This document shows positions 23,952 through 50,586 of a DNA stretch of 64,000 nucleotides, piece by piece. Source of the stretch: Fimicolochytrium jonesii (Eukaryota); assembly GCF_025526975.1 (NCBI RefSeq), contig NW_026515675.1, forward strand, positions 248,001 through 312,000, in the 5' to 3' direction. The notes under the pieces were generated by a model, which saw only the letters and a program-made list of their open reading frames with translations, was not told the origin of the DNA and did not search any database. The number at the start of each line of letters is the position of its first letter. Within the stretch, counting starts at the first letter, position 1. The position numbers and the translations under genes are program-made.

Positions 23952-26430
23952 TCAAGTAGAGGCAGCCGCAGGAGCCATACCCTCCTGCGCAGGAGCCGCC
24001 GGAGCAGCAGGAGCAGCAGGAGCCTCGCCACCACCACCACCCTCGGCAGCGGTGGCACCTTCAGCCATCTGATCATCCAACCTGAACACGGCACGACGCA
24101 AATTCTCCTCAACCGCAAGCTCAATCTGCCTCTTCGCGGTACGGTTAATCATCGGCTTGGCAATCTTGTACAAGAAATCATGGTGCGAGTCATGCAGGCG
24201 AAGATCCAAGTCCTTCACGCGGCACTTGACTTCCGCGGGGTGGAGGTATCGGCCCGCCAGGTGTCCGGGCTCGCCCATTCCCGTCTGCATCCCGGGAACG
24301 AGCGTCATGCGAACGTGGAGGCCTTCCCCCTTCATGTCGAAATCGGCCAACCCGACGTCGCCGAACCGGATCAACCCGCGCTTCTTCTTATACATCCACG
24401 CAATGTCGCGCGCGCTCGCCTCAATGTGAGACATGTCAAGCGTGACGTGGCTCGCGAGCTTGACCGCGGCTTCCTCGCCGGTAGCGGCGGTGGAGTCCAT
24501 CGTGGTGTCGGTCACGACATGGACGTAGTTGGGCAAGATGGTGGAATGCAACACGATGTTGTCAAAGATCATGTGGGAGTCTTCGTCCTCGGTGTCGATG
24601 CGCGGGATGGGGATGTATGCGAGGCGGTCTGCGATCATGGGCACGCAGCGCGAGAGGTCGCGGAGGAGGTCGGGTTTGAATTGCGGGTTGCCGCGCTCGT
24701 CGAGGAAGAGGTCGGCGAGGAGGGCGCGAGTATCGGCTTGCAAGCGCTGGGCGGTCGGGTTGTTCTTCAACGCGTTCACGAAGGTGGAGGCTTCGTACGA
24801 GACGGTCTGGGTGTGGTCGTTGTACTTGTTGAGATGGGCGCGGCCGCGGTCGATGAGTTCCTGGCCCTCGTTTTCGTAGTTGGGGTTCTCGATGTAGCCG
24901 GGCTCGCGAATGGATTTGTGCAGGAAGGTGGTGACGTCGGACCAGAACTGGGCGAGTTCTTGGTCGTGTTGGGCGTCGGCCGCCATGGCCCGGAGGGCGT
25001 TGATGAGCGGGTCGAGGGAACGGCCGCCGGCGAAGTTTTCGACGAGCTGTTTCGCGTTTTCAAAGGCGGCTTTGGCTTCTTTGGTGGCTTGGGTTTCGCC
25101 GATGCCGGAGTCGCGGCGGAGGCCTTGATATTCTGAGTCTTCACCGCTGGGCATTGTCGTTCCCGTGGCAGAGGTAGCGGCGGGCGTGAGGCCCGTGGCA
25201 GGCTCGGTGCCTCGCATACCCTGGTCTTGATGCATCTTGTCATACTGGTCCCCGCCCTGCTGGTCGGTACCAGCAGCCTTGGTAACGCCAGTCGACGCCA
25301 TGGTCTTGGCCTGCATAGCAAGCGGGGCAAGCAAGTCGAGTAGCTCATCGATACCGCTCTGGAACTCGGGCTTTGACTGTACGGTCTTCATGACCTGCTT
25401 GAGACGACGAATAAGGTCGCGACGCTTTTCTTCAGGCATCTGCAGCAATTTCTTGCCGGCGCGGGCACCGGTCTCGCGAGCATCCGAGTCCTTGTCTTGA
25501 ACTTGCTCTTCACCTTGACCCATTACGGTGCCGGACGGGAGACGCTGTTCAGCTTGCTGAGCGGCGGTTTCAACGGCAGTCTTGGCGGTCTCGGTAAGCG
25601 ACGACCTGGAATTGAGCTTTTCACCCGCAGCCTGCTGAATCTGCCCCGCAACCCCCTTGATTTCCTCACCGGCCTGTCCCATAGCCGACGTCGCAGTATC
25701 CAAACCCTCACCCGCCTTCTGCTGGACATTCTCCCCACTCGTGTCTTGCGCAGCCTCATGAGCCTTACCAGCACCTTGACGCATTCCCTCAGGCGCGTTA
25801 GGGTCCTGAGCTACGTCGTCGGTTGCAGAGGCGATGTTGCTTCGGACGATTTCATGGGCGATGTCGGTGAGGTCTCCGAGGAGGTTGCGGAACTCGGGGG
25901 AGGTGATGATCATTTTGGCGAGCTCGGCGGAGCGCGAGCCGGCTTTGATGAGGCGGTCGGCGGCGTCGGAGTGTTCGGTGGCTGTCATGGGGCGGTAGGA
26001 TGCGGCTTCTGTTGATGTGAGGGATGAAACCGGTTGGTAGGTTTGTGGATGCTTGAAAAGATGATCGCCGACCGAGAACACTTACGCTTGCTGTGGTAAA
26101 TCACCTTCTGAAGCTGATCATCCGGGTTAGTCTCAGCAAGAAGCTTCGCGGCCGAGTCCATGATCTTCTGGGCGTCCGCGGCAACCTACACATCCAATCA
26201 GAAAGATCAACATCCATTCACTGACGAGCACCACCAGTGTACCCCTTACTCACCTTCCGACCTCCAGGACTCAATTCCCCCTGCACCTTCCGCAGCGTCT
26301 CAGACTCCTTCGCATGCTGCAACGACTGCACGGCCTCTTGCGTGGTCGGGAGCCGGCCTTCCTGGACGGCGGCGGCGAGCTCGCGGGCACGGTTGGCGCG
26401 CTGGCGTTCGATGTCGGTTGTGTCTGACAT
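23952..26430 (-). CDS. Fungal DUF4449/DUF5923 (HAM1-like) protein
   Basis: GRLPTTQE at the N-terminus, LVENFAGGRSLDP, LFLDERGNPQFKPDL, YIPIPRID...IFDNIVL, DIAWMYKKKRG...DVGLADF, HDFLYKIAKP. Two introns near the 5' end; TATA-like element at about 26567. Confidence 0.75.
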
Positions 26431-29677: not shown

Positions 29678-32600
29678 TCACCGAAAAGCATTCACAGTCG
29701 GTGCATTCCTCATCCGTCTCTCCAACGGCTGCCACGTCTTCCACGGATTCTTCCCCTTCGTCCTTATATCCTCCTTCACGACGGCCGGAGTAGCTTCTTT
29801 GTTTTCCTTGAACGGCGGCGGGCGTGTGAGGAGGAACCCGAGGTCGATGTCGGTCGCGGGCTCTTCGGCGTCGAGGATGTCGGTTAGGTCTAGTTGGTGG
29901 ATCTGTGGGATTTTGTAATACGGTCAATACATGCGTGATATGAATGTATTGGATGAAGTTGGCGACATACCTGAACCAGAGGGTATGTGAGCACGCTGCC
30001 GATGACGGGGTCTTCCGACAAGATGGATGGGAGAGGCACTTCCGCCGTTTTCAGTTGGATGAACTAAAAGATAAAGATGTAAGCATGCGTTATCGCATGT
30101 TGTCTCTGGCTGGTAGGTACTTACCGAGTCGACCAAGGCGCCGACAGTGTGCGACTGAACCGAATGCCGGACTTTCCACGTCTCCTCGATTTGGGTGACG
30201 ATCTCCATCCGCCGTTGCAGTTGCAGATCCAGCGCCGCCTCGAATTCGGGGTTCGGTGAGTCGCCGCCCGTCTCAGGCGTAGCCTCCATTGCGGGATCAC
30301 CGGACGGCGAGTGTGATGACGGGTTTGCGTCCCTGCCAGTCTGCCCCGCCGTGTCCGCCGACCGTGGCCGCGATGTACGTTCGACGCTCTGTTCTTGGGC
30401 AGGGTTCTCCTCCTCACGCGTCACGACCTGCACAGCGGCGACCTCCTCTTCTTGCGCAGGCGGCGGACCGGGGATCCTCACGGCGTTCTTCGGCACCACA
30501 TCGCCGTCGCCGAGATTGGGATGCTCGATGAAGGTTAATGGGTCGCCTTCGGACTGGATTCGCGGTCTCTGGTCCGTGGCGGGAGGTGACGCCGTGGCCA
30601 CAGTACTACCAGCTTCCTCTGCTACGGTGCCGGGCGTTGGAGACGTCGGCGCTGGCGAATGCGCTGATGATGCGATTTGCCTCTGTTTAGGCGGACCTCC
30701 TACATGCCTCGCGACCACGATCGCATGGGCGCGCTTGAGCACCTGCGGCGTAGATGCCAGGCATGACAATCCCCGTGCGGCGGTGTACATGACACTGAGG
30801 GATTCTCCGATAAGTTGGTCCAGCAGGTATCGCTTCTTGAACTTTTTGATCCATTCGTCGAGGTCGCCTAGGCGGAGTTCGGAGTCCAGTGGGCCAGGGG
30901 CTGTGAGCTGTTGGTCGACTGTGCTTAGAGCGATGGCTCGCGAACTATTATCCCTGTTTTAGAAGCAAACAGCAACTTACTATCGACAATTTCTCGGTCT
31001 CCAGGACCTCTTTGCTTTTCGGATCAAGCTCGATTTTGATCCCGCTGCCTGTTTTGTGATGCGCATGAGCACTCTTGTTGCACATGGTCTCTATTGATGG
31101 CGTGCCTCTTACCAGTAACATTGATGCTGTACACCTTCTCCCTTGTACACACAGCAACCTTCGCGGTAAATGCCCCGACCTTCATCGCAGCGACGCCAAA
31201 GAAGCATCGCGTGCTTCGGCTGGGTCGCAGGGTGACTGGATCTGGTAATGTAATGACACAGTCGTCGTTGGCGTCGACGATTTTGAAGCTGATCTGGAGG
31301 ATGACGTCCCCCTTGTTGGCGAGCAGCAGAGGTTGGAAGATGCGTAGATTGCATGGAGAGCGGCCTGCAATCAGAGCCGATGTTAGAGAATTGGAGAACA
31401 ACGTCCGCACATACAAGCGTGAAGACTTACCAAACTCCAACGTCGACGGAGAGTACTCCAGCTTGAGAAGGCCACCTATTCCGATCACCGCAAGTTCCTT
31501 GTAGTTGATGCCTTTACACTCAATCATGAACGTATGAGCAAATTTGCCGAGACCCGCTGGCTTGAAAAATGCGTCAATGTCCATCGATTCCTTCGGTTCC
31601 AGATTCCCAAAGACTCTGCCCACGGAGTAGCTCGGTTCCCTCGAAGGAGCGATGGTGAAGTGAACCGGGACCTTTCCTTTATTCGTCAACGTGAATGGCT
31701 CCCTGTAGGAATGTCCTACTGCACACACGCCAAAGTCGAGGTACATATTTTTGATGACAAGTTCTGGGAACGCTGCCTTGCCTCGAATGGCGATGTTAAA
31801 TGTGCCGATGTTGGTGACCATCGCAATGTGCGTTCGCAGCTCGTACCCTCCTGATGGGTTCCATGCCACGGAGAACGTGCTGGACTGTCCGCCAAGAACT
31901 TTCCCAGCTGTTGGCGAAACCTTCAGCGGGTAAGCGCTCTTGATGGTGAAGTGCAGCGGGAACTTTCCGTAGTTCGTGAAGCTGACCGGCTTCGTGGTCG
32001 TCTCCATGACCGGACAGATGCCCATGTTGCAAAGGCTGAACTCGTTTGGTCTGAGGAGCGCTTCTTCGCATTGGCCTTTCACGAGGATGTAGTACAGCTT
32101 GTCGAGCAGGTCCGTGCGGATCATCAGCTGTTCCTCGAACTGAGCGACTTCATGCTTTATGTGTGTGATGGAAACCGCCGTGCTTCGACCGGGATAGAGG
32201 ATGCCTTTGGCATGCCCGATGGAGAACATTGGCGGCTTCATCATCTCCCGCACACTGAAGCTCGTCCGGACGGTGCCGGTGTTTGTGATGTTGAGCTTGA
32301 CACACGGCGAAGCTGTGCGTTCGAACATGCCAAAATCCAATATTTCATTGTCAAACTCCAATACGGCTGTTCCTGCGTGTAGGACTAGAGGGATCTTGTG
32401 ACTACTGTATGGCGAAGAGACCGTCAGATTGATTGTAGCTTTGGTCTCCTTCGACGGCGTATACGCAACAATGATGTCGGTCTCATTGAAGGGATGAATG
32501 ACGACGGACGGCGGGAGGAATTCGACATCGGGGAACTCGCGGTCCAGCTTGAAAGTAACGGGATAGTTGACATCCCCGACGTTCTTTAACCCGAGTTTCT

Positions 32601-35600
32601 GCTCGTATGAGTTGCCAATAAGACATTCGGAGAACTCCATTTGGATTTTCGATACGATCAGTACGGCTTCTCGGCCGAGGCCGACAAGCTCGATTTCCCA
32701 GGAGTCGACGGCGGTCCCGACAACCAGTCGACCCGGTGCCGGACTCTCTTCATGTGGGTTGAACACAATCGGAAGGTTGAATACCTCGTTCGGGAAGAGC
32801 GATACCCGACGCACTGGCCAGTCCTCCCCCTTGAAGAAAGTATCTGTCTCGTGCAATTCGAAGCGCGTCAAATGGAGCATGGCATTTCCCTCGTTCACAA
32901 TTGGCAAGAATGACACGGTGTCCTTGCCAATCATGCAATGCCCAAAGTCGAATCGGCGGTACCTCGATAGCGAGACCTTGGTGTACCCGCCGGCCCCATG
33001 CATTTTGAGACGGATGGGCTGAGAGATGTCCGGTTGGAATACGACATCCTGGTTCTGGATCGACTCGTCCACCGGCTCAAAGGTAAAGCGCACGGTGATT
33101 GTTTGCCCGACTTTGATGTGTCCTCTTGCGGGCAGTATCCGGAGGGAGGCATTCGGGTTGAGGAATTGAAAGTTGAAATCCTTGTGGCCGACGTTCGTGA
33201 AAGTGCGCATAATCGTCTCCGATTCCCCGAGTGGCTGGCGGTGGAAGTCGAGCATTCTTGTGTCGTCACACAGAACAGATATCGCTTTGGGGGTGGCTGT
33301 CAGTGCGATCTCATGAACTGACGCATTGGGCACGCCTGGCTTGATCAGTAACGTGGCCAAAAAAGTGTCTTCAGTAGACAAATCGATCTCAACGGTCAAC
33401 GTGGTTTCGCCATAGCTTGGCAGAGTGCTGATCGGCGGGTCCACCTTCAGGTAAGGTTTGATAAAAGGTAGCGATTGGCTCGACAGCTGGGTGCTTGAGA
33501 TGAGATGGAAGAACATCTGGCGCCGCTTGAAGAACGCCGAGTATTGCGCTGGCAATCCTTTCTTCGGGTTCAACAACACGCTGGTCCCAAGCGAAGCTCC
33601 AACAGCTCCAGCAGGTTTCTGACTGAGGTTCGACGCACTGCCAGTCGCACTGGTTTGACCAGGCGTTGCTGAAAGGGCTTCGTCGGCGGTTGTCAAAGCA
33701 TCGCCGGGAGCCTGCGCCTGCTGCTTAAGCAAGGTCCGGAGCTTTCCAAGCGTGTTTCCCCAGAGAGCGCTCAAAGGGTCTGCGTTTGCATCCATATTTT
33801 CCTCTTCCAAATCTTCCGCTTTTCGGATCATCATGGCAATCATTTGCCACCTATTCTTTGCCGTCAACGTGATGGTCTGAACGTTCCGGTCCGCGCAGAG
33901 TTGCTGCCGAGCCCATCCAGATCTCGGATCCAGGACGGAGTAATTCTCGTCGAACTGCACAAACGAGGAGGAGGTCTCGCTGGAATGACCAACTACTAGC
34001 CATTCAGCCGTAATGCTCGCCGGAATAGACCCGCTATTCACGAGCGTAAGCTTACGGCGATACACATGGTTTGTGGCGATATCACCCATGTTAAGATCGC
34101 CACGATGCGTGATCTGAATCGTTCCTCCTTTGCCTCGCAGAGGAACTACATAAGACCCTCCTTCCGACCTGATTTGGATACTCCCTGCCGCAATCATTGG
34201 TGACCGCGCGACGAACCGCGCAACGACCTCCAAACCAACACCAGGAGCGATCGTAGAGCGAATGTTGGAGAACCAGTTCCAGATGGTGCGCTTGGACGGC
34301 GGAGGGGGTTTGGGAGCACCGGCCATCTTGTGCTGTTCCAGCGGGATGGGATCACCAACGAGTGCCATGACATACTCGTCGTTGTCGACCACGGCTTCCA
34401 TGGATATCTCCACCATTCCGACGTTGAATAAGAAGAAATGCTTCTCCGAGGCACTATTGAAGGGCACCATGCCGAAATCCAGACCGTTCATCGAGACATC
34501 TTTGTCGTCAGCATATACAACTTCCAGTTTCCCGATACCGCCACTGGCGAGCATTTGAAGTCTGAGAGGTTCTTTCTCCCACAACACTTTTATGGTCGTT
34601 GAGAACTTGTTTTCCGACGTGGGGCGAAAGTACACCCGTAGAGGATTTGCTGACCCTGGAGGAATGAAACCCCGCAACGGTTGAACGTCGAATTCGCGAA
34701 TGCTGAACGGCTGCACCAGATAATCGATGCCGAAAGGACCCTCGTTCTTGAGCTGAAGAGTATGTACATGCTCCGATTGAATGGGATGGACGCCGAGATC
34801 GAGCGTACGCATCTCTTCCGAACCGGCGAGCAGTTCTCCGGATTGGCCATACATCATAAGCCTTGGGAAAGCCGCCCGCCCGCAGACATTGATGTCCTCA
34901 AACTGATCCCCGAAATAAACCCGGAATTTGATTTCTGTGTGGGCCTCCGAGAGAGGCGAGAACTCGATGAACAAATCAGTCTTGCCGTATGGTTTGCAAT
35001 GACCATCCGGGTTCATCAACGTGAACCCCTTTGCTGCAAGTTCCTTCACCCACGGTCGGACTTCCTCTTCCGCATCGCCAGAGTCCGCATTGCTAGTTCT
35101 GGGCGCATTCAACCTCTGGCCCAACTCCGAATACACCGACCAGTCTCCATCCTCCGGTTCGGGTCGCAGATGATAGTCCACGCCAAGATTGCCAGCGTTC
35201 GATATAGTAAGAGGCTTTTTGAACGTTCGGCGAATCCTGCACAGTCCGAAATCAATCAGGCTCAATGGCGAGTCAATTTTTAGCACGGCCCGGCCGCCAA
35301 CGCCCTTGATTGGCGCTACTAGGCTCTTGAACTCGTAGTTGAGATTGATCTGACACTCGTACTCTGCCAAGGAGTCAGGGATGAACGTGATGCAGATTTC
35401 GACCGACTCACCGACATGTAAGGAGCCACTGGTGGGCTCGGCGGTTATGATATGTGGCTTTGTCGGGACAGGTCTCAATGCCGCTCTTCCCTCTGAATCA
35501 TGTCCGATCGTCAACTTGTTTTCCAAGTTCAAAATGAATGGCAGGTTGATGTTGCCCTCGTTCGACATCGTGAAGATCTTCTTGTACACCCCGTTGACAG

Positions 35601-38600
35601 CGCATACACCAAAGTCGAGCGACTGCATCGCATCGGGAGGATTGAATGCCAACTTAGGCACACCCACCGACCCTTCCAATGACAAGACAAAGTGATCACC
35701 GCGACTATCAGAGGATCTCAAGAAAGCTTTCGCCTTCAATGTTTCCACGACTTGAGGGACATAGACTATGTTGATGTCTTTGATCGTGTTCGGGCCCACG
35801 ACGACAACCTCGTTCTCCTTATCGTTGTCGAGACTGATGCCCGGGTGATGACAACTGAAGATGACGTGGGCTTCGGCAGCCCCTTTGTTCTGGACCTTTA
35901 CGGGCTGGACATTGCGTGTCATGAACAGCGCCGTGCCGAAATCCACGTTCTTCGTGAGGACAACCAGTTCCGGGTAACTTCCCATCCCGCGTAAGCTCAC
36001 AAGAAGAGGCTCGATTGTGTATCCCTCCTGCATGTGCGGCAGCACTCTCAGGGTTTCGGTAAGCTGGCCCACTGCTTTCGGTGCGAACTTGACCGTAATC
36101 TCCACCGACCCAGCGCCTTCCAGCATCCCCTGCTCGGGATCAGCCGAAAACTGCGTATTACTGCACTCCACAAAGTACCTCAAAGGCAAGATACCGCGGT
36201 TCTTCAACGAGACCCTGAAATGCTTCTTGGTCCCGATCCTCAGTGTCCCAAAGTCCAGCTCATCAACGTCGATCCACAATCGGCTGGAAGCGCCCACTCC
36301 ATGAACCACAATCTGGCTTTCTGCGAAATCGCCCGTGCGGAGCGTGCAGTAGGAGTTGACTTCGTATTGCGCGAGACTGGGAGTGAATGCCACCGCGACG
36401 GATTGGGTGCAGCCCGGGAGGAGTTTGCCAGAGGTCGGGAAGAAGGACATTGGGAGTGGGATTGACTTCTCGTCTTCGGGTAGTGGGGCGGTGTCGAACT
36501 TCTCCATGGGGTGGTACCGGATGGAATCTTGGGTCAGCGTCCATGGCAGTGGAACCGTCCCAGTGTTGGTGAACTTGATGTCGGTTTTCTAAGTAAGGCG
36601 ACGAAGGTCAGATGATAGGACATGCAATGCATCATTCAACTTGGAAACATACATGTCGAATATAAACCGCCCGAACTCCAAAGTCAACTCTCTTCTCCCA
36701 AAGTTGCAATGCCGGCTGTATGTTCCCATGTATCCAGAAAACATATGCCTCGGCCTCGCCGTTCGATCTCTCCACGTCCACCTTCATGACAGCGTTTCGC
36801 TCTCCCTTTTGGCGCTGTAAAAGGAAAACAACCCTTAGTACATTCACTGCGGGTTCCTGCAGGCTCTCATATACATACCACATCAAATCCTGCCAGCGAC
36901 AGCTTGATAATACACTTCTGCGACGCCGGCAACCGGAACGGAAACGCCTTGGACGAAGCCGACGGCCCACCCACCACAGAGGTTGATATCGACTTGTACC
37001 TCCGTCTCCGTACAGGTGCGTTGACACTGGAAGCCGCGACAGACTGCCGTCCAAACCCAGTCCCTCCTGCATGCTCACCGATCTTATGATCAACTTCATC
37101 CCAGTCGATTTCCACGGCGTCAAGCGGCGCATTGCCAAACTCCGACGAAATTTGCGTTTCGAGCAAGATATCCTCCTCGAATTTCCACTGCACGTGGGTC
37201 TCGTCGTCCAATGTGATGTTCTTGACAGAGTAGTCAAACGTACCCACGTTCGTGAGACGGAACATCTTCTCTTTAGGTCGTCCCATCTCGACAAACCCGA
37301 AATCGATCGTGCTCTCCGTCGTTCGGACAGGTTTCTCATCACCAGCAAGAAGTTCAGCAAGCAACGGCCCAGCGGTAACACGCACCGGATTGGCCAGATT
37401 CGACTCAATCCCCGACCTTCCCCCCGTTCCTATAACCGGCACCGGCCTCGTCAACCCCCCAAAAGACAAAACCAGCAACTCACTAAACGTCCCACTCTTC
37501 GTCGGCTCAAACAACACCGGCAGCTCCAGCTTCGTCTGCCTTCTCACCATCGTCCCCGTCAATCCCGACGTGTGGAACGGCGGCGGGGTGGTGATGACCA
37601 AGTGCGTGCTCGACTGCTGGTTGTTGATGATCGTCAGGGGGCGGGAGACCCGCTCGCCGATCTCGACGTCCCCGTGGTGCAGGAACTCGGGCATGAAGGC
37701 GAGATCCTGCACGCCTACCGAGCAATCGAAGACGAGGGGGGGGAGACTGCGTTTGGCGCGGCCGCGCATGTGTTCGGCGTTGACCATGTGGGAGATTGGG
37801 TCGGTGTATTCCATAAAGAGTTTGGCGCGGTAGTCGCCTGATGAGGTTGCTTGGAAGGTGATATCGACCGTGTAGATCTCGAAGGGTTTTAGGTTCATGC
37901 GTGGGACGGAGAGGGAGAAGGGACACCAGTCGGAGCTAGAGGAGGTTGTGGGGACGATCATCGGGAGCCCGTCAGCGCCGAGGCCTGTGCCCTGCTGTCC
38001 GACGGTTACGAGACGGGCTTCCCAAACCACATCGACGGGCGCCCGGTTCCGCAGGATAAATCGCCGGGACAGCTTCTCCATGACTTTCAGCGAGGGATAA
38101 TGCACAGTATCCATCCCCTCCCTGCTTTCCAACGACACCAAATCCCCCAAAATCCCCTGCAATCCGGCACTCACAAGCCCGCCCTTCTTATCATTCGCCT
38201 CAAACGCCGTGATGGATCCCAAAATAATCTGATGCATCGTCTCGGGTCCAATCCCATTTTCCAAGAACGACGGATTGATCCTGATGGGTATATCCACGCT
38301 CGCCGACCCCTCCAACTCCCCTTCCAGCGGCGCATCCGTGTAGAAATGCTCGCTGAGCGCCAGCCGGTACTTCTGCACCGTGCTGCCCAGGTTCGATAAG
38401 GTGACGAACTCGCAGATATCTTCAAACCGGCCGCTGAGATGGGCGCCGAAAATGGTCTGGATGGGTGGGTCTAGTTCGAGCACTTCGGACGATTTGATCA
38501 CGGCGGTCGTTGACGCTCGCCCGCGTTTGGGCATGACGCCCGTGGCGGGTTCCTCCGCCGGATTAGCGATGAATTTCCGCACAGCGTCGAGGGACTTCTC

Positions 38601-41509
38601 CTTCAACAAGAACGGCTCGTCGACCGCGAACGCGTTCAGCTGCAACGTGCCCACCGTCCATTTCCGCGGTTTGGTCATCTGAACGCCTAATGTGCTCTTG
38701 AACGACCCCGACACCACGCTCAGGAAGTTGACTTTGACGAGGACAGTCAGCCGCGGGCCGACGGTCACGGATAGCCCGACGGCGTCGGGACCCTCATAAG
38801 GCCTTGATTCCAACTGCAGCGAGTTAGCGCCCTTCCTATTCGCCACATCCACCGGAACAAGCTCAACGGTAAACGGCGCAAGCGGCGGGGTGAAAACCGT
38901 AAACTGCGTCGGGGTATCCGCGAAATTGACGATCGGGAACTGCACGGAGGTGAACTGCGACACCGACGCGATGGGGAACATCAGGCGTTCGTAAACGGGC
39001 ATCCACAGCGTCGGGCCGGAGAAGGCTGCGGCTTCCAGCGTGACGGGTTTGCTGTTGGGTGCGTGGAAGACCAAGGACTCTTGCCGCGTGCCGGTGAACC
39101 CGGAGAGAAAGGATACGCTGATCCGACGCTCTTCGAAGGGTTCCAGTGTGATTGGCAACCCGTAGTGGACGCTCAGTTCGTTCGTTGAGGCGATGCAGGT
39201 CACGGGTAACGGTTTGCGGTCCCGGTTCCGTAGCGTCATTTTGCGGACGACGGGGTTGTAGTATATATCCGTGGGCCCGAAATCGAGTCTGGTGTCCAGC
39301 ACATGCAGAGCGCGGCCGCCGACGGCTTCCAGTAAGACCTTCGTGAGTTCGCCGCCAAGGGCGACAACAAGTAATGCATCGGAGACTTCTGCCTCAATAT
39401 TGGGCACAAATTTGAGCTGAAAGGATTTTTTCTCGTGGGCGGCGAGGATGGTCTGCGTCGGGTAGATTTGGAACATTGTGCTGGTCTCTGTGGGCGCTAC
39501 GAGGGTGACGATGGGGCATTCGACGGGGAGGAGATTGGAGACCATGAAGACCATGGTGCGGGTGTCGCCGATGGGGCAGATGCCAAAGTCGAGCCTGACG
39601 GGGCTGATTTTGATCGCTGGTGTATTATAGCCGCGCAATGAGATCCTAAAGGAGATGGAGATGAGACGCCATCAATGGAGTCAAACGTCCTCGCCCTTGC
39701 TTATAAGACCATACCTCTCATAAGGAAACCCATTAGCCCCCCTAACCCTCAAAAACCCCAGCACCTCCGGCGTCTTCCTCACAACCTGCGGACACGGCGT
39801 AAAATATACCGTAACGGTAACCGACTCGCCCTTAGGCACAAACCCATATGCCGGGGTGGCAAAGAAGAACCTGCTCGGGCCCACTTGTAAACGAAAGGGG
39901 ACGTCGTGCGTGACGGATTTGTTTTGGAGGAAGATGTCTTTCTGGAAGGGGTATCGGTTGAAGAGGAGGATAGGGGGTGTCATGTTGAGGGTGAGGGTTG
40001 AGGCGTCGGGGTCGGCGGTGGGGGCGTCGTGGATGGTGGTTAGGGTCGGTGTGTGCGGAGGTGGGGATTGAGAGGGGTCTTGCGATGTGGCGCTGGCTTG
40101 ACGGAAAAGGGGTGTGAGTGAGTAGATCTTTCAAGGTAGCGAAATGACGAGCGCGGGGAGAAGCCAACCTGGTACCTTCTTTCCTGCCCGCAGCGGGGAT
40201 GCTCGGCCTCTCAAACATCTTGTCCGACAACAACGCAAACGCCCGGGAGACTTCGTCATACGGCTCCTCTGGCATCTGCTGCTCCATGTCCACTCTCTTG
40301 GACGCCTTCGCAAGTCCCGCAAACGCCTTAACCTGGTCCCTCTGGTAGTTCTGCAAGGACAACAAGTTCCATCTCCGCATAGCGTAGCCCGTCAATTTCG
40401 GCGTCTGACTGGTTGAGGTACCTATGCTCTGGAGCTCTTTATCGTTTGGCCGCGGGTACCACACCGCCCAAAACTGCATGATTTCGCGCTTGACAATGGT
40501 GTGCATGCTTATGTTGGAGGATGTGGCCGGTACTGCGCCGTGTAGGAGGCTAGGCCGGCGAACTTCGGTCGCGGATGTTGAGAGATTGGTCGAGCTGGCT
40601 ATGATTTCCGGTGGTGGGAGGAGTTCGGCGGATAACGCTGCGATGGGTTCGCGGAAAATCTTTTCCACTCGCAGCCGGCTCCTGTTTGTGACTGGGAGAT
40701 GGGTGTGGATGGCGTGGATCGCGGTGGCTTGCATGTACGGATGCGCTTTCTTCCTCAACAGCGTGAGAAGTAGGCGGTCGATGTATCCCATGTAAGAAGA
40801 AGTTTGCGCTTCAGGAGCCCGCAGGAACAGGGCGCTGGCGTGCACGAGACTTATTCGTCGGCGGAACACCTGTGGTGCGACATAGTGAGAGCTGTCAAGC
40901 AATGTCGGGTCCTGATTCAGCGCATCACCGAGTTCCGTCGGAAAGGTGCGTGCAATTTCGCCAATGACGGCTTCAAAGGCTCTCGTCCGTATTTTGGCCG
41001 GGAACCCTTCTTCGCACATTGCTTCGACGAATTCGCCCAGTAGTTGTGCAGCGAGACATCTGTTGTTCCAGGACTTTTAAGACGATTGACTAAGACTTCG
41101 CCAGACATCCACATTCTTTGAACTCATTTGCCATCGCTCATACCTCATCACCGGTCACAATTTCGATGAGCTTCGATACAATCCTCTGCTTTTGCTCTAT
41201 GTGCAGCAGAGTTCTGCCAATTGATCTGGCGCATAGTGATATGTTCTTTAGCCCAAAAAAGCGCAGTGCCGATTCATTTGCATGGAGGTAGGCGCATATC
41301 AAGTCCCAAGCGTGCGCATATTGTGACGAGTATGCGAATGTCTGAATCAAAGGAAACCATTAGTATCTCGATGGATTGTAGTGTGAGCGGTTTTCACTGG
41401 TATTTACAAAGTCCGTCGAAAGCAATATTGCTGCCGCGCGCACAGTCTCAAAGCTGGCATCCTGAACGCTCTCCGATTCGCTCCCATGTGCGGATCCTGT
41501 TCCTGTCAT
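29678..41509 (-). CDS. Giant Hydin-like protein with many tandem ASH/PapD-like Ig domains, roughly 3,600-3,700 aa
   Basis: Co-oriented ORFs of 395, 100, 923, 1827 and 288 aa linked by GT-AG introns. Repeated signature (L/V)DFG-x(8-12)-L-x-N-x-G...F-x-V-x-P-x-x-G-x-L-x-P...V-x-F-x-P...L-x-G-x-G. First exon 41509-41408 splices in frame; stop TGA at 29680-29678. Confidence 0.82.
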
Positions 41510-42280: not shown

Positions 42281-43702
42281 ATGTCGGTCCCTATCGCCAT
42301 CCCGGTTCCTCTCAAGTTCAACGTGCCTCCGGCTTTCTCTGACATTGGAAAGACCACAAATGACCTGCTAAGCAAGGACTTCCCCGTCGGGGCAGCTAAG
42401 CTCGAGGTCAACACGGTTACAACGAACGGTGTGGTACGTAAAACATTAACGGACAACATACCAGAAGACGGCTGTGGGGGCGATTGTGACGTATCATGGC
42501 GAACCGAGGCGCAAGACTGCTAAAGGGTGGGACGGAGCGTATGCGACGTATCAGGGCGAAAGCGGGTTGTTCAGCCGGATTCGAAGTTTGCCGCACCAAG
42601 GGTGCAGCGGCGGCGGAGGGGCCTGAACGGTCGATGACAACGGAAGACGCCTTACTATGTTGGGTGTGGCCGCGGTCGCCCTACCACGACGATTGTCAAA
42701 GAAGTTGAAAGATTGAGCAGGCCATTGACTCTCTGTTCCCCCCTTTGTACAGAAATTCACCGTTTTGGGAGCCAAGGACAACAAGACTGGCGCTATCGCC
42801 AGCGAGCTGAAGGCCAAGCACATCGACAAGGCCCGTGGTATTACATTCACCGAGTCCTGGACGAGCAGCAACATTCTCGGCACCCAGCTCGAGCTTGACA
42901 ACACCCTTGCCCGTGGCCTGAAGGTCGACATTGCCGCATCCCTCCTCCCCGCCAAGGGAACCAAGAACCTGAAGGCCGGTGTGGAATACAAGCAGGACCA
43001 CCTCTTCACCCGCACGTCCGTCGACCTTTTCCGGGGTCCCACCCTTCACGGAGATGCCGTCGTCGCGTGAGTACTGCAAAGAGTTGCTACCAGTTTCACA
43101 TGGCACATTTGACTGATCTGTCGTCAATCTTTCAGAAACGACGGTTTCTTGGCCGGAGGAGAGGTTGCATACGACGTGTCCGATGCCCGCGTCACCAAGT
43201 ACAACTTGGCTTTCGGTTACCTCGGCCGCGAGTACTCCGTTGCCCTTCACGCGTAAGTTGCAGATTACTCTTGTGGTCCATCTGTGGCATCCGTCTCATC
43301 CCTCCTATCTCTCTATGGAATAGCACCAACGCCCTGAGCACCTTCGCCGCGTCCTACTTCCACCGTGTCAACGCCGACGTCGAGGCCGGTGCCAAGGCAA
43401 CATGGGTCAAGTCCCTCGACAATACCGTCCACGTCGAGGTTGGAACCAAGTACTTCCTTGACAACGACGCATCCCTCAAGGTAAGGCGCCATTTTCACCC
43501 ATTCTCCCATCCATACTCGCATACACTAATTCTTCCTTTTTTAATCACCTAGGCCAAGGTTGACAACCGCGGACTGTTGGGTCTCGGCTACACCCAGATC
43601 CTGCGCCGTGGCGTTAAGCTCTCCCTGGGCGGTCTCTTTGACACCACCCGCTTCCACGAGAACGTGCACAAGCTTGGTCTCGCCCTTACCCTTGAAGCTT
43701 AA
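42281..43702 (+). CDS. POR1: Mitochondrial outer-membrane porin (VDAC), 4 introns
   Basis: VPPAFSDIGKTTNDLLSKDF, GITFTESW, ASYFHRVNADVEAG, KAKVDNRGLLGLGYTQ, HKLGLALTLEA*. Confidence 0.96.
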
Positions 43703-45220
43703 GCGGACTGTCTCACATCTTATATCACATGATTCAATTGTATATCTTGTGTGTGTTGCGGTGTCTGTTTTCCTCTCACTGTTGATCTTCTCAACAACCG
43801 TTGGCATCCCCACTCTCTCTCTCTCTATCTTCATGACAAAAACGTAATTAAATATACAAAACATTGCATATCATTTGGTACCGATGGAAGTGGTGAGACG
43901 TTGGAAGGCTCGTTGACGCAGGTGACGCTCGAGTGCAAAGTTCGGAACGCGCGAGTGGGTGTTCGACCTGGAGTAGAGCAAGCTTTCCAAAGGCCCGTTG
44001 GCTGCAAGACCTTCTCAGATGACTTTTGCTGCAGGGTCTAAACGACGAATGCTTGGAAGCTATCATATGTGGGGAATGAGTAAGCTTGCGAGCGTTGGAT
44101 GCGGCGTACACGGTATGAGAAGTGGACACACAGTAGCTGCCCGAAAAGGGCATTGGCTGGACAGTGACCGTCAGCTGAGAATTGCATCCGCGGCGGCGTC
44201 CTTCGACACGAGACTCATCATAGTGTAAGACACGGGGAATCCTTCATGTTCCTTCAGGGCCGCACAAATGTACCTCGTTCGCAAAGGGTCAACATTCGTC
44301 GGCGGCCCCACTACGGACCACTCCTAATAGCAATGGATTTCCCTTACACAGGAGGTAAGGTTTTTCCCGACCGCACAAAACCTTGAACCACCAGGTCCAA
44401 CTTCGGCGGTGAGGCTGTGGTGGGAAGGTGAGGGATACCTCAACGATGCAGCGTTATCGGGTGTCTCCAACCGTCCCAAAGTCCAGGAGGACATTTATTA
44501 TGCACATCCTCAAATCCCGCAATGGGAATGGCCAAAGTCTAGGCCCTGCACCGGGTCGACGGACTCCGGATCAGGGGCAGCGAGAATAGGCCCTTTTTGG
44601 TTGTCCTTTGACTCGTTTCCTAATGTCTAAATGTGGAAATGGAGGCCGACCCGGGGTTTATCCTGCAAACATGTTGGATCTGGATATTGGGTTAGCTGAA
44701 GCCGTCCCGTCGGTATTTCCCACGCTGTCCCGCACACACGGCGAGACGGCGCTCACCTAGGCGCCTGCCACTCCGAACGGAAGGTGGAGGGCGAATGCTG
44801 CCGGAACATGTACGAGCGAACAACGTAACCCACACCCACATACTGTGCCCCTCACAGTTCCCGCACCGGCAGCCGTTGGCACCTGCACGTTGGACTCGCA
44901 CTCACTGGAGTATCGCCTTGTCACAGCGCCGCTTCGTTCAGCAATCGGCTGCCGACCGGACCTTCGAAAGCTCTCCACTCGGGGCTAACCAGAAAGAGGC
45001 TTCGTAGTTGAATTGCCTCCTTGGAGTAAGCTCGCTCTATTGGCAGCTCAATCTCTCAGCGTCGAACCGGGTGACGCTAAAGTAGCGGACCAATCGACAA
45101 ATCTCTGCGAGGGAAGCTCCCACAGGACTGTGCTGTTGGCCATTTACCGCTCGAACTTGGAAGACAGATACGCCGTTGGACTCTCTGAGAGGTATAGGGC
45201 AAAGGACTGGCTCTTCTCCG

Positions 45221-47882
45221 ATGCTGCGACCTCTGCGGTCGTCGCAACGGCTACCGTCGTTTTGGAGCTGCCTGGCAGCGAGTGCAATATGTTCACTCTG
45301 GAGTTGCCTTCCCGGTCATGCGGCCCGTACGGAAGGTACCGTATCTGGGCCCACTCCCCACGGCGAGGGTGGGAACACCAGCTGATTGAATTTTTTGTGC
45401 TTTGCTTAGTTGCGGTGCTGGTAAAGCCATTGTTCGACACCTCTGCCACGGACGAGCTTGCTCTGTATACACAGTTGACACAACAGTTCCAAAAGGATAC
45501 CGGCATTGCTATTACAGTGTCTATGGGTGTGACGGTAAGCGTATTGGGTGTTGCGTTACCTGCGTCCTCAGCGAACCACACTTCTGAAAGCCTTCATCTC
45601 TATAGTTCAGTGCCGATCCAGCAGCCTATTACCAAACCGCGAAAAAGTACATTGAGGATCATAACGATGTTTACGATATCATCGCATTGGATCAATCATG
45701 GCTCGACACCTGGCCAGGAAATAAGTACTTCGTAAACCTTTTCAAGGACGAGATCAGTGGAACGAACTCCAACATGACGGATTTATTTGCCTCTCGTGTT
45801 TTAAACGACGAGAATGAGGCAACGACGGAAGCGGACTCCTCGCCTGATGGCTTAAGTATGTGCACCACGGCATCCTAACGGTTGGTTATAGTCTCACAAC
45901 GCTTACCGAGCTCTTCCCCTACGCAGTGGCGATACCACTCTGGAACGACTTCTCTGCATTGTTCGCGCGAAGCGACTTACTCACCAAGTATAACATAAGC
46001 ATCCCCATTTCTTACCAACAAATGGTGGAAGCGTGTCAAAAGATTCTACCGGCGGAGCAAGTGAATCGGCGCTCTTTGCAGTGTTTCGTGTCTGGCATGA
46101 TAGGTAAGTGTGTTTTCCCCCAGCGATGCGTTTCCGCAGGAGAAGTTTATTGACAGCCCCATTTCAGGTCAGGAAGTGGTGGATTTCATGGGCGAGCTTG
46201 TTTACAACAACAACACCACTCCCTTGATAAACTTCCCACAAACGCCGACCTTTGACACAGGGAAGAATGCTGCAATGTTGAATCAATTCAGGTCTTGGAT
46301 CGTAGACTCGCACTTCATGACGGAACGTTCAATGCAGTACGACTATGGAACCGCACTGAACATATGGACCCTCGGCGACTCCGTATTCTATCGAGGGAAA
46401 TTCTCCTCTCTGCACCAGACATATACCCAATGGCAAGGGAAAGGATGGGTCCCGGCGGTGATACCGGGGAATAGTCCGAATGCGGAGACGCAAATGTACT
46501 CGACGCCTGGTGGGTATCACCTCGCGATGACGAAACATGGAGAAAACAAGAACGATAGCGCTGTCGCGGAAGCCTTACTCTTCTTGACTGGGCCTGTCGT
46601 ACAGAAGGAACGAGCGCTTCGTTTTGGGGCACCTCCTAGTCTCAAATCATTATCCGCAGGTATAGATTCGTTCCCTCGTTGTGCCTTTGTTGTTTGAAAC
46701 CTTGCTGATATCACGTTTCTTCCGTTGATAGACCCGGTGACATGCCAGGCTACGAATTGCACCATCACCCCATTCCTGATCGATAAGACATCGTCCCCCA
46801 ATGCAGCACCTTTGTGGGTCGAGGCCTCCGCAGCAATGGCCCCTTGGTTTACGAAGATTTTCGACGGGACGGTGGATCCAAAAACCGGCCTGGCAAGCGC
46901 AAAGATTGCGGTCCTCGACGTATTTAGTGGGGCGGACTCGGGTCTTTCCACCAAAGCGGTGATTCTTCTGGCGGTCCTCATCCCAATCGCAGCAGTCGCC
47001 CTCTTGGTAGGAGGGTTCCTTCTATACAGGAAGAGGCGGATACGAAACAGTGAGAGAGAGCGGAAAATCGAAGACTTTGAAATTGCGGCGAATGCAGGTT
47101 CGGGGACACCGGAAATGTCGCAGACGACGACCTCCGATGCTACGCGTATGAACTTCTCAACACGGCCCGCTCGCTCGGCGCGGGACCCGGCGAAGCCTGC
47201 CGATCTGAACCAGCGCGTGATGGACGCCAAAACAGCGGGCGCGACCGCAGCCGCAGCAGGCGCCGGGATTGTCGCAATTTCCACATCACCAAGCGACGCG
47301 GAGAACCACACCAGCGACTTGCCAAATCGTGGAAGGGACGGTGAAATCATGACCGGTGACGAATCCAGCGGCCACGTCCGGGGTCGCGGCGGGAACCGCA
47401 CGTCGTCCAGCGACATGGTCCAACGGTTCACAGTTATCCACCCTTACAAACCAAAACTGGCGGACGAGATTGAGCTCAAACCAGGCGACGTTGTATCGGT
47501 CCGTCTCGCCTACGACGACGGCTACGCATTCGGGCAGAACGACCGAGCTTACGCGGCCGGTGTGTTCCCGCTGGCATGTCTCCTACCCGTCGGCATGGAA
47601 CTCGGGCTCCCCTCGCGGCTGGAATCCGGCGCATCTAACGTGCAAGCCATGCAACACGCGCCGGAGAAAGTGGACTCGCTGGAGATGTTGCTGCTGAGCG
47701 GGAAGATCACGGAGGGCACGTATCTTGCTTTGAGGAGAGAGCAGGAGGACGAGATGAGGACGCAGCGGCAGATTGCGGCGCTCAGGGAGCGGTTGGCTGC
47801 TCCGAATCTGGAGGAGGCTGAGAGGAAGAAGTTGCAGAAGCGGTTGGATGAGATTGAATTGGGGATTGATGATGATGATTAG
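45221..47882 (+). CDS. Single-pass receptor-like protein: signal peptide, sugar solute-binding domain (PBP type 2), TM, SH3, SHOCT-like/coiled-coil tail (769 aa)
   Basis: Five GT-AG introns (45336-45409, 45535-45605, 45856-45926, 46104-46167, 46660-46731) give one frame of 770 codons. SBP motifs FQKDTGIAITV, YDIIALDQSWL, AIPLWNDFSALFARSDLLTKYNI..P.SYQQMVEACQKI, TPGGYHLAM, LLFLTGPVVQKERA..GAPP. TM VILLAVLIPIAAVALLVGGFLLY followed by RKRR. SH3 FTVIHPYKPKLADEIELKPGD...DDGYAFG...GVFPLACL. Confidence 0.85.
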
Positions 47883-48468
47883 ACGTTCGCGGACTTTACC
47901 AACACCACAATCAAAGCGCTTTCCGCCAGTCAACTCCACCCCGCTTTGCGTCTCCTGAAGCTAAGCACCTTCCCCGCTTTCCCTCTCATCCCTCCCATCC
48001 CCCTCTCTCTGCAACATATACCCTCACCCTCCAGTAGTTTCTTTTTATATATAACTGCCACTCGTCTCCCTACCCGTCCTTCATACGTTTTTGTTATTGT
48101 ACCTTCCATACATCATCATCTAATATCTGCACAACACCAGGTTTTTTTTTGCTGTTTATGGGACCAAAGGCATTGTGTCGGATCTACTGCCTATCCACGC
48201 GTTTCCATTGTCCAATGTCCATGGTCGCGGGCGGTTGGCGTTCGTCAGTTGCGAATATGATGAGGAGTCAATGGGCGAGCGGCCGCAAATTTGACGCCTG
48301 CGGGAGGATCATTGCGCGGCCGCATTCGACAGGCAGCTGTGAACTCCCTCTCGCGGCAACAGCCTCCTCCTGCAGAAAACTAAACCCTCTCTTGTTGGAC
48401 AGCTGCACCCTGACGACCCCACTGGAGATAGATAGAGCATAGCCAGAGAGACGGCACAGGTATTGCAA

Positions 48469-50586
48469 ATGGGCCTTTCAACAGGAGTGATTGCTGCTAT
48501 CGCAGTCGTTCTGGGCTTGCTGGTCGCCGCAGTCGCCCTCGCCCTATACCGTCGCCGCAAAACTCAACTTGGAAGCAAACCTCGTTCGCTCTCTGCTGTG
48601 GAGCAGGGAAATGGCAGGAGTACACCGCTGGGACCCGTCCGACGGTCTGTGAGTTGGAAGGCTGTGGAGAAGGATGCCCAAGTGAAAATAAGCACCACCC
48701 AAGCACCTGTCGCACCTGCGGTCGATGTGACCACTTCAGCGCCCTCGACAAATTCCAGCGAGATGCCCAATTGCAGCACCACCAACCTCCTCAGTTCCGC
48801 TGCCGTCCACGCCGGAACCGAGTCTAATTCTACTCCCCTCGAAAACCGACCAACGTCACCGACGGTCGAACCAAAGACGCCTGAACCTGCCACCCCCCAA
48901 ACTCCCGAACCACAAACATCAAAGACGCCCGAACCCCCAACTTCGGATTCCCCACAACCGCCTCGCTCGGTGAAATCCAGGACAAACAGCCAGAAGACTC
49001 TGCGATCGGACGTGGACATTCCTGGCCGGTCGACTAGTCATACTGCAAGTAAGGAGGATGAGGTGCAAGTCCCCAGTTTGAAGGGGATGGTTGCTGCCGG
49101 ACACTGGTTCAAGCGATCAAAAGCTGATGAAGTTGCTGTTAAAGTCGGGGTAAGTGAAGTGGCGGCAAGAATGCGAGAAATCATTCTTCGAGAGGATCGG
49201 TCAGCTCATCCTATCAATCTGCAGGACGCCATCACAGTCTACACAGTCTACAAAGACGCCTGGTGCTTCGCAATGAATTGGAGTTCTGGCCAATCCGGAG
49301 TCATGCCCGTCGCAGTCGTATCTCTCGACGAAGCGACAAATCTCTTGCAAAGATTCCCGCCCGTGTCCGAAGACCTTCTCCCGCCCGGTGACGCTGTTAC
49401 CCCTCCACCAGCAAGCAAAGCCAATCCACCACGCAGATCCACCGACAGCCACCGCGCGGTGGTGGTGTCACCCCAGCGTTCTGAGCGGTCCGAGCTCAAC
49501 CGATCGTCGTCTCTTCTGTACAGCTCGCCACCGATTGCCCGACCTGCCCCGCTGCCCTCCGTCGCATCCTCTGCCATGTCGAGTCATTGGGGCGCGCAAG
49601 GTGTGCGTGGGACCGACAGAAAGTTGTACAAATTCCCTTCTCAGCAGTTCAGATCGACGGTCTCGTTGATCGACAACCAGCAATCACCATCGCAGAAGTC
49701 TCCGTACCATATGGCGGGGAACAAGCAGTACCGACCGGATTTCCTCCGGAGTGCGGACAGCTTGCTACCTAACAACAGAGGGATGCCGATGACGCGAGCT
49801 GTTGCCTCAAATGCACCGGGGACGCCAGAGTCGGGAATCTCAAGTCTCGCTGCGAGTTACTTTGCCGCCATCTCCCAGCTCGAAGAAAACGACGCAGACG
49901 AAGCCGCCGCAAAGCAGCTACAAGCCACAGCATCCGACCTTGCCGAATCCGTCACCGCAATCTCAGACCTGCAGTCCGACAGCGGCAGCAAAGACCCCGG
50001 AGCACAGCGGAGGGCACGGCAGCTTGTCACAGAAATTAAACGCATCTCCCAACCCAGCGTACGACGAGACGAGCGCCGAAAATCCATCGTCGAGTTGAGA
50101 TCCGAGCTGGAAAAATTCTTCGACGACGTGTTCATCGATGCTGCGACGACGGCTGGCGGGCCTCCTCCGCCGCTTCCGGAGATCCCGGCTGTGTACAGGC
50201 AGGAGACCGCGCTGGTTACGCCTTCACCCGCCCCGCCGGAGCCCCTCGCTCTGCTCCCGCGGCCAACATCGACATCACCTCCCCCGGCCCAAGACCTCTC
50301 ACAAGCAAACGAGACCGCGCCAACATACCCAACAACAGAAGACGACGATACACCCCTCTCCCAACTTGCTCCATCTGTCCTCCCCCCTCGGACACCGTCA
50401 CCATCCCTCACACCCCCTCCCCCGTCCTCGTCCCCGCGCTCCGTCTCCCCGCATCAACGGAACCCGTCGGATGAATCAACAGGCTCGGTGGTTGTGAATC
50501 ATGCGGTGCGGCAGGGGAGCAGTATGGATACGTTTAGACGGTCGGCGTCGTCCGCGTCGCCTGTTAGTACTGAGAGTACATTGTAG
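48469..50586 (+). CDS. N-terminally anchored membrane protein with divergent SH3 and proline-rich regions (about 680 aa)
   Basis: Signal-anchor GVIAAIAVVLGLLVAAVALALY followed by RRRK. Removing the in-frame intron 49150-49224 (GTAAGT...CTGCAG) gives the SH3-like AAGHWFKRSKADEVAVKVGDAITVYTVYKDAWCFAMNWSSGQSGVMPVAVV. Many PxxP motifs. Confidence 0.78.
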   Translation: MGLSTGVIAAIAVVLGLLVAAVALALYRRRKTQLGSKPRSLSAVEQGNGRSTPLGPVRRSVSWKAVEKDAQVKISTTQAPVAPAVDVTTSAPSTNSSEMPNCSTTNLLSSAAVHAGTESNSTPLENRPTSPTVEPKTPEPATPQTPEPQTSKTPEPPTSDSPQPPRSVKSRTNSQKTLRSDVDIPGRSTSHTASKEDEVQVPSLKGMVAAGHWFKRSKADEVAVKVGVSEVAARMREIILREDRSAHPINLQDAITVYTVYKDAWCFAMNWSSGQSGVMPVAVVSLDEATNLLQRFPPVSEDLLPPGDAVTPPPASKANPPRRSTDSHRAVVVSPQRSERSELNRSSSLLYSSPPIARPAPLPSVASSAMSSHWGAQGVRGTDRKLYKFPSQQFRSTVSLIDNQQSPSQKSPYHMAGNKQYRPDFLRSADSLLPNNRGMPMTRAVASNAPGTPESGISSLAASYFAAISQLEENDADEAAAKQLQATASDLAESVTAISDLQSDSGSKDPGAQRRARQLVTEIKRISQPSVRRDERRKSIVELRSELEKFFDDVFIDAATTAGGPPPPLPEIPAVYRQETALVTPSPAPPEPLALLPRPTSTSPPPAQDLSQANETAPTYPTTEDDDTPLSQLAPSVLPPRTPSPSLTPPPPSSSPRSVSPHQRNPSDESTGSVVVNHAVRQGSSMDTFRRSASSASPVSTESTL

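Follow-up and report, generated by a model that had tools for sequence, protein, structure and literature searches.

In a 64,000-nt window of the Fimicolochytrium jonesii genome (contig NW_026515675.1, positions 248,001–312,000), there is a six-exon plus-strand gene at window positions 45221–47882, which encodes a membrane protein whose apparently undescribed architecture is assembled from two known module types. The protein is composed of a probable signal peptide, an ectodomain of the sugar solute-binding protein (SBP) type, a single transmembrane (TM) helix followed by an RKRR motif, a disordered linker, an SH3 domain, and a C-terminal helical tail. This layout had been proposed by a model that saw the DNA letters alone (hereafter the sequence-only reading), and exon joining, domain matches and fold predictions confirm it: the exons join to 2310 nt, encoding 769 aa plus the stop, with 0 internal stops. 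Our tentative reading is that the protein may well sense, at the cell surface, some ligand outside the group of classic disaccharides, and that it would do so by clustering and recruiting one specific partner through its SH3 domain and tail. The reading starts from what we observe directly, namely the gene structure, the domain order, the predicted folds, the family range, one clade that groups with the ectodomains of fungal SBP receptors of the seven-transmembrane (7TM) type, a half-replaced pocket, a stalk and linker of variable length, and near-invariant motifs in the SH3 domain and tail; whatever goes beyond sequence, fold, family and conservation, we infer.

The ectodomain is predicted to adopt the two-lobed type II periplasmic-binding (PBP2) fold of about 400 residues. 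Scanned alone with Pfam, the 769-residue protein gives a weak SBP_bac_1 match (E 6e-5) under the curated cut-off, which the orthologue P0003 passes. The family profile matches PDB 6j9w, a Thermus alpha-glycoside-binding protein, with E 2e-40 over chain residues 22–403 of 408, and its next matches are SmoF, TMBP and MalE3. AlphaFold2 was run on P0001, the public protein model of this gene (917 aa; Spizellomycetales), with an alignment of 98 sequences that includes presumed bacterial SBPs, and the predicted local distance difference test (pLDDT) value is mostly >90 over the SBP domain. Foldseek matches the predicted ectodomain to the 6jar/6j9w series and 1eu8 (E 1e-25, template-modelling score 0.83–0.86, identity 16–19%), and an independent Atlas model of P0003 matches an SBP cluster with a score of 0.88 over 407 residues, so the SBP_bac_1/PBP2-like fold named in the sequence-only reading stands. 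Set beside the Thermus thermophilus 6j9w series, the trehalose/maltose-binding protein of Thermococcus (TMBP, 1eu8) and mycobacterial LpqY (7ape), the ectodomain shares the two-lobed fold and the length of about 400 residues (template-modelling score 0.78–0.86), whereas identity is 16–19% with the Thermus and Thermococcus proteins and 14% with LpqY, and the chytrid family adds cysteine pairs, a TM helix and cytoplasmic domains.

Two conserved cysteine pairs (C200 and C216, C391 and C396), with three cysteines invariant and one nearly invariant in 19 rows, are in keeping with an extracellular domain. Together with the leader, five ectodomain sequons and the RKRR motif, they point to a location at the cell surface. 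The Pfam domain scan of the protein found no kinase, cyclase or 7TM domain and there is one TM helix, in agreement with the earlier claim that the protein has neither an enzymatic nor a 7TM output.

The architecture is that of a family. A search with a profile made from six orthologues retrieved 1745 proteins at E 0.001, and the 150 top-scoring ones were examined. SBP, one TM helix and SH3 occur in that order in 24 of the 154 proteins examined, 21 of which also carry the tail (one in part). All but one of the 24 belong to named chytrids, which comprise one Chytridiales isolate and 12 genera (Fimicolochytrium, Geranomyces, Thoreauomyces, Powellomyces, Spizellomyces, Gaertneriomyces, Phlyctochytrium, Rhizophlyctis, Borealophlyctis, Blyttiomyces, Dinochytrium and Irineochytrium) and cover Spizellomycetales, Rhizophlyctidales and Chytridiales (classification checked for four species). 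No Rhizophydiales or gut-fungal member was named among the best 150 of the 1745 matches, with 30 of these 150 looked up by name. Family members are called hypothetical or SH3 domain-containing in the databases, and NCBIfam gave nothing near its cut-off for 8 proteins scanned. A literature search covering part of the literature, in main texts without supplements, found no description of an SBP-TM-SH3 protein; one preprint (bioRxiv 10.1101/2021.12.02.471044) makes no reference to SH3 and proved not pertinent. The sequence-only reading, which knew of no characterised example, had spoken of a candidate new class; the combination was not found in print, but both halves are known module types.

Related SBP ectodomains are also carried by other outputs, namely 7tm_3, tyrosine kinase (Pigoraptor) and cyclase-like domains (46 proteins scanned), and this range of known output types counts for a receptor. 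F. jonesii itself also encodes an SBP-7TM receptor, P0040. Quick trees of the SBP domain, with Shimodaira–Hasegawa-like approximate likelihood ratio test (SH-aLRT) support and with rows of <250 aligned SBP residues left out, place the SH3 family in one clade, with support of 99 for 119 rows, three partial proteins included, and 98 under a mixture model for 60 of these rows, hand-chosen to thin near-copies. The SH3 clade, the SBP-7TM receptors and one further single-pass row group together, apart from the presumed prokaryotic rows (SH-aLRT 98 with 60 rows, 95 with 119), in support of the proposed kinship with SBP-7TM receptors. Because the family is one clade grouped with fungal SBP-7TM receptors, the best reading of its SBP domain is inheritance from a pool of eukaryotic receptors, not contamination; the earlier term 'bacterial-type' is apt for the fold, but the domain itself groups with eukaryotic receptors. 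A nesting of the SH3 clade inside the 7TM receptors, as seen in the 119-row tree, was not upheld: a tree constraining 47 7TM rows and fragments together is 5.8 log-likelihood units better, and by the approximately unbiased (AU) test (p 0.58) positions of the clade inside the 7TM group and as its sister are both compatible, so no direction of origin is claimed.

Fungal class C-like G-protein-coupled receptors (GPCRs) bearing SBP type II or SBP_bac_1 ectodomains are already in print (PMC3251606; PMC5168858). They share with the chytrid family the ectodomain family, a joint group in both trees, and Tyr at the position of 6j9w R49, but the chytrid family has one TM helix and no 7tm_3 domain, with SH3 and tail instead. 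For gut fungi, SBP type II proteins are reported that have a terminal TM helix or several, and guidance of zoospores and capture of sugars are speculated upon (PMC5168858). These are likewise membrane-anchored SBPs of the trehalose/maltose type in a zoosporic fungus, but the main text of that paper describes no cytoplasmic domain and contains 'SH3' 0 times (PMC5168858), whereas a conserved SH3 domain and tail follow the TM helix in the chytrid family. Protists carry related SBPs on a single TM helix with a kinase (P0075, Pigoraptor) or a cyclase (P0101, Peranema), that is, with a catalytic output that the SH3 family does not have. The single-pass protein P0153 consists of SBP, one TM helix and a short tail without SH3, and sits on a long branch as the sister of the SH3 clade (SH-aLRT 91 and 95). 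P0153 keeps the W248, W287 and R356 positions of 6j9w, and could reflect a single-pass stage that preceded the gain of SH3. These three positions are also kept in P0075 and P0158 of Pigoraptor chileana, whose SBP-TM-tyrosine kinase order makes it a candidate for a receptor kinase that senses sugar, in an organism closely related to animals. The cyclase-like proteins with a related SBP are P0101 (Peranema trichophorum) and P0116.

The pocket of the ectodomain is half kept and half rebuilt in the alignment. Pocket positions were read off the alignment to 6j9w for 26 family rows (three near-copy pairs included), 43 multi-TM (7TM) rows and 36 presumed prokaryotic rows, with T46 and R323 also counted as pocket sites. 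In LpqY, alanine substitution of Glu241, Trp259 or Arg404 each abolishes trehalose binding, and Asp80, which corresponds to Thermus Asp70, Asn134, Gly334, Leu335, Trp261 and Glu179 are given as further contacts (PMC7949145). LpqY contacts were mapped by spacing and others taken from the titles of PDB mutant entries (R49A, D118A, W287A/F, R356A); LpqY E241, W259 and R404 are taken as 6j9w E230, W248 and R356 by spacing and from the R356A structure titles. Specifically, the contacts of the N-lobe and hinge are retained. The D70 position is D or E in 24/26 family rows and D in 40/43 7TM and 34/36 presumed prokaryotic rows, the D118 position is D in 26/26, 34/43 and 32/36, and the G286 position is G in 25/26, 41/43 and 35/36, respectively. 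The window protein keeps these as D109, D171 and G338, with Y339 at W287. In the comparison with the Thermus, TMBP and LpqY proteins, D70, W73, D118 and G286 are kept, as is W287 in the form of Tyr.

In contrast, the glucose contacts of the C-lobe and hinge are largely replaced. E is found at the E230 position in 4/26 family rows versus 34/43 7TM and 32/36 presumed prokaryotic rows, R at the R356 position in 5/26 versus 40/43 and 30/36, and the W248 position is R in 15/26 and K in 5/26 family rows, while W is found there in 29/43 7TM and 33/36 presumed prokaryotic rows. The E174 position, with E in 2/26 family rows versus 38/43 7TM rows, follows the same pattern, and the fungal SBP-7TM receptors thus keep E174, E230, W248 and R356, which the SH3 family has largely replaced. 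Tyr at the R49 position is found in 24/26 family and 27/43 7TM rows. The family has residues of its own, with Ser at Y250 (24/26), Tyr at W287 (21/26), Gly at N247 (25/26) and His at Q288 (26/26). In the window protein, the triad that holds the buried glucose is absent, with Y282, K300 and T406 in its place (the alignment is loose at T406).

Since this triad is largely replaced in the clade, trehalose or maltose is an unlikely ligand. A canonical trehalose/maltose-type receptor serving zoospore chemotaxis or germination, as suggested in the sequence-only reading, is therefore quite improbable: the top structural and profile matches, which are alpha-glycoside and trehalose/maltose binding proteins, the kept N-lobe and hinge contacts and the R356 retained in 5/26 rows all speak for it, but the essential buried-glucose contacts are replaced while the 7TM receptors keep them, identity to the matched structures is just 16–19%, and the best 150 matches, 30 of them looked up by name, include no named member from Rhizophydiales or gut fungi. 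Between a different ligand and no ligand, a different ligand is somewhat more likely. The 12 pocket columns evolve at a mean site rate of 0.66, versus 1.02 over 377 columns (26 rows; p 0.016 against random column sets, p 0.006 against non-aliphatic columns), and the slow pocket positions, with substitutions that are conserved and specific to the clade, suggest that ligand binding is retained. With the Glu lost and Trp replaced by Arg or Lys, the pocket would be more basic and could, at a guess, suit an anionic or modified sugar.

Several points weigh against a functional pocket. The E230, W248 and R356 positions have ordinary rates in the SH3 clade (0.87, 0.90 and 1.03, versus 0.37, 0.71 and 0.19 in the 7TM rows), as would also be expected of a pocket that no longer works; the residues that are kept may have a structural role rather than a ligand-binding one, because the LpqY equivalent of D70 destabilises that protein when mutated (PMC7949145); and the p value for the pocket columns is modest, from a 12-site list partly picked after the alignment was seen. 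In a pseudo-binding protein, which we consider somewhat unlikely, the ectodomain would hold no small ligand and would serve as a protein-contact surface, for example in adhesion or recognition, or as a co-receptor or adaptor for the related SBP-7TM receptors, tied to cytoplasmic partners through the SH3 domain and tail. Such a role would agree with the loss and ordinary rates of the three glucose contacts, with an ectodomain conserved far less than the SH3 domain and tail, with the presence of P0040 in F. jonesii, and with the long Ser/Thr-rich stalks of Chytridiales members. It agrees less well with pocket columns that, as a set, are slower than average and with pocket substitutions that are themselves conserved (Ser at Y250 in 24/26 rows, Arg or Lys at W248 in 20/26).

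How the ectodomain would act on the cytoplasmic side bears on the sensor that we favour. The TM helix (aa ~462–485; with RKRR at 486–489, positions 46956–47039) has a 19-residue hydropathy of 2.96 and is a helix in the predicted model, and in the P0001 model five residues separate the last SBP helix from a long helix that covers TM and juxtamembrane segment. Between SBP and TM, the stalk spans 9–60 aa overall, with 9–19 aa in the Spizellomycetales and Rhizophlyctidales members that have SH3, 30–54 aa, often Ser/Thr-rich, in Chytridiales, and 60 aa in one Blyttiomyces paralogue. The cytoplasmic linker (aa 490–616, positions 47040–47420) is mostly predicted disordered (pLDDT <50 over P0001 656–762) and poorly conserved, and the distance from TM to SH3 varies from 76 to 395 aa across the family. 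Because stalk and linker vary in length and the linker is predicted disordered, a rigid lever from the cleft to the SH3 domain is implausible for the family. The ectodomain had been described as wired to SH3 through one TM helix; the single helix is present, but with such variable segments the signal would have to pass by clustering and not through a rigid connection.

The SH3 domain (aa 617–672, positions 47421–47588) matches SH3_9 with E 2.4e-7, and its predicted fold is normal (VIA-align Z 10.7 against 7nzd, root-mean-square deviation 2.2 over 62 residues). Its PxxP surface is non-canonical. Canonical surface I residues are Y/F8, Y/F10, W36, P51, N53 and Y/F54 (PMC5823434), and the window protein has H623, Y625, Y651, P666, A668 and C669 at these six positions, so that 2/6 are canonical in a reading by motif. 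The tail (aa ~699–765, positions 47667–47867) is a region of about 65 aa with three predicted helices, pLDDT near 90, and an RLDE-ELG motif at its end. In five relatives, identity is 75–77% in the SH3 domain and 78–84% in the tail, versus 41–45% in the SBP and 23–35% in the linker, and YDDGY, GVFPLACL and the terminal RLD-E-G pattern are invariant in 23/23 rows. The SH3 domain and tail are thus the most conserved parts of the protein, a core that alignment marks as being under strong constraint, and the 'short helical tail' of the sequence-only reading, correct as to its helices, was understated.

The tail found no family match in profile or Atlas searches; Atlas gave generic helical matches, and fold searches with the SH3-tail region were filled by SH3 matches. 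A resemblance to short helical domains of the SHOCT or GvpG kind is conceivable; in the profile searches GvpG scored E 0.36, far below cut-off, and SHOCT was absent from the matches. Among the 154 proteins the tail is seen only together with the family SH3, and no shorter protein carrying the SH3-tail region was found among 2563 candidates. Against the sensor that we favour, no contact between SH3 domain and tail is predicted with confidence in the model of this region (predicted template-modelling score 0.40).

A similar SH3 follows a single TM helix in P0143 and P0086, which have unrelated cysteine-rich ectodomains and tandem SH3 domains, and so TM-linker-SH3 looks like a mobile module. Yeast Fus1, which we take to have a single TM helix, a long low-complexity cytoplasmic linker and a C-terminal SH3 domain, would be the closest comparison in this half of the protein. 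Its SH3 has an altered PxxP surface with Cys at position 54 (PMC5823434), as does the chytrid SH3; unlike Fus1, the chytrid family has a folded SBP ectodomain, Tyr in place of Trp36, and the additional helical tail. A capture or landmark protein, which would retain a sugar or a glycan of the wall at the cell surface and be linked by SH3 and tail to the machinery of endocytosis, actin or polarity, for example at rhizoid tips or in encystment, in the manner of Fus1 at sites of fusion, would explain the missing catalytic output, the flexible linkers, the Cys at position 54 and the likeness to P0143 and P0086; sequestration of sugars is, moreover, proposed for the gut-fungal SBP-TM proteins (PMC5168858). 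We judge it unlikely, since the nearest relatives of the ectodomain are mostly receptors with signalling outputs, and a tail that hardly varies speaks for a single specific partner and less for a generic tether.

For the surface sensor, the steps would be as follows. The SBP-fold ectodomain would bind a small extracellular ligand that is neither trehalose nor maltose, binding would cluster the single-pass protein (a coupling step reached by exclusion), and the clustered non-canonical SH3 domains and helical tails would recruit one specific partner. By analogy with what we take Fus1 to do, this partner might be an actin, polarity or trafficking protein. A wider version, in which the family is an ancient and undescribed class of chytrid surface receptors, with a Venus-flytrap domain retuned to a new ligand and a dedicated non-PxxP SH3 plus a new helical domain as output, which would do without kinase, cyclase and G protein and direct a decision in the life cycle (for instance the homing of zoospores, encystment or the growth of rhizoids), is conceivable, though we hold it in some doubt.

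Little is known, in terms of receptors, about substrate sensing by chytrid zoospores and rhizoids, and GPCRs have been the obvious candidates to date; the SBP-TM-SH3 family is a concrete non-GPCR candidate conserved in three chytrid orders. Spizellomyces punctatus is transformable, with targeted knock-out raised solely as a possibility (PMC7213984), and since its orthologue is SPPG_04977, the family can be tested there. In microbial eukaryotes one SBP ectodomain thus serves several outputs (7TM, kinase, cyclase and SH3). The family is also a natural test of how the pocket of a binding protein is retuned or retired, and the tail adds a strongly conserved region that matches no family.

The gene model itself bears on whether the architecture is real. 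Exon 1 (45221–45335) carries the start codon and the probable signal peptide (aa 1–35), exon 2 (45410–45534) begins the SBP ectodomain, and exon 3 (45606–45855) encodes its N-lobe with Y88, D109 and W112 (6j9w R49, D70 and W73). Exon 4 (45927–46103) encodes the hinge residue D171 (D118) and the first two conserved cysteines, and exon 5 (46168–46659) the C-lobe with the remodelled Y282, K300 and S302 (E230, W248 and Y250), the retained G338 and Y339 and the clade-invariant H340. Exon 6 (46732–47882) opens with the end of the SBP (aa 387–452, 46732–46928), which contains the other two cysteines, and closes with the stop codon (47880–47882). The five introns, at 45336–45409 (74 nt, with a pyrimidine-rich acceptor), 45535–45605 (71 nt), 45856–45926 (71 nt), 46104–46167 (64 nt) and 46660–46731 (72 nt, in frame with a stop inside), are all GT-AG and confined to the leader and ectodomain region, and retention of any single one results in an early stop. 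A 36-nt version of intron 3 ending at 45891 was rejected, as it breaks the frame; the 71-nt intron to 45926 is correct.

P0001 is identical to the 769-aa model from aa 39 on, and introns 2–5, whose junctions are shared, therefore agree between both models. Its 5′ end differs: P0001 starts at 44246, has no evident leader and leaves intron 1 unspliced. Its upstream exons lie at 44246–44356 and 44394–44441 and then from about 44992, reading through intron 1. The P0001 5′ end is probably wrong, and a start at the 45221 ATG, with intron 1 spliced out, agrees better with the orthologues, because a moderately hydrophobic leader (hydropathy 1.6 vs 1.2 for P0001) then ends three residues ahead of the SBP, as in P0003. 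A strongly hydrophobic stretch directly precedes the SBP in 14 of 32 rows compared; of the remainder, 2 have such a stretch but are gene fusions, 9 start at or near the SBP or are without it, and 7 are low-scoring. Within the gene model, certainty is lowest for exon 1 and intron 1.

An artefact, whether contamination, a chance fusion of two genes or mis-annotation, is hardly credible. The leader-less 5′ end of P0001 could be taken to favour it, as could relatives P0008, P0009 and P0013, which run into other genes in their models, but it is largely refuted by the five spliceosomal introns, by a domain order repeated across the 12 genera, and by exon 6, which alone holds the SBP end (its last ~66 aa), the TM helix, RKRR, the linker, SH3 and the tail. 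With SBP end, TM, SH3 and tail in one exon, separate transcripts for SBP and SH3 are excluded. In P0008 and P0013, a CorA or amidase gene lying upstream is joined to the family gene, and both models are probably merged predictions.

The genes around the locus are ordinary eukaryotic genes, among them a SNF2 helicase (8213–11268, minus strand), an anamorsin-N-like domain (12189–13091, plus), a phenylalanyl-tRNA synthetase (20078–21616, minus), a CRAL-TRIO protein (22335–23141, plus), a HAM1-like protein (23952–26081, minus), HYDIN-like Ig repeats (31024–39671, minus) and a eukaryotic porin (42729–43070, plus). Introns, neighbours such as the HYDIN-like gene and the porin, and chytrid orthologues together bear out the view that the gene is fungal and not a bacterial contaminant. 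Among 30 open reading frames scanned in the window, there is no cognate ABC permease or ATPase.

The next gene downstream (48436–50586, plus strand) encodes a TM helix close to its start and a long region of low complexity, together with an SH3-like stretch, which is without a Pfam match and scores E 0.48 with the family's own SH3 profile. The Phlyctochytrium arcticum model P0009 covers the SBP-SH3 gene and runs on into another TM-SH3 protein, and the SH3 of the latter matches the stretch in 48436–50586 weakly (pairwise E 7e-5, 26% over 38 aa), hinting that there may be a conserved pair of TM-SH3 genes.

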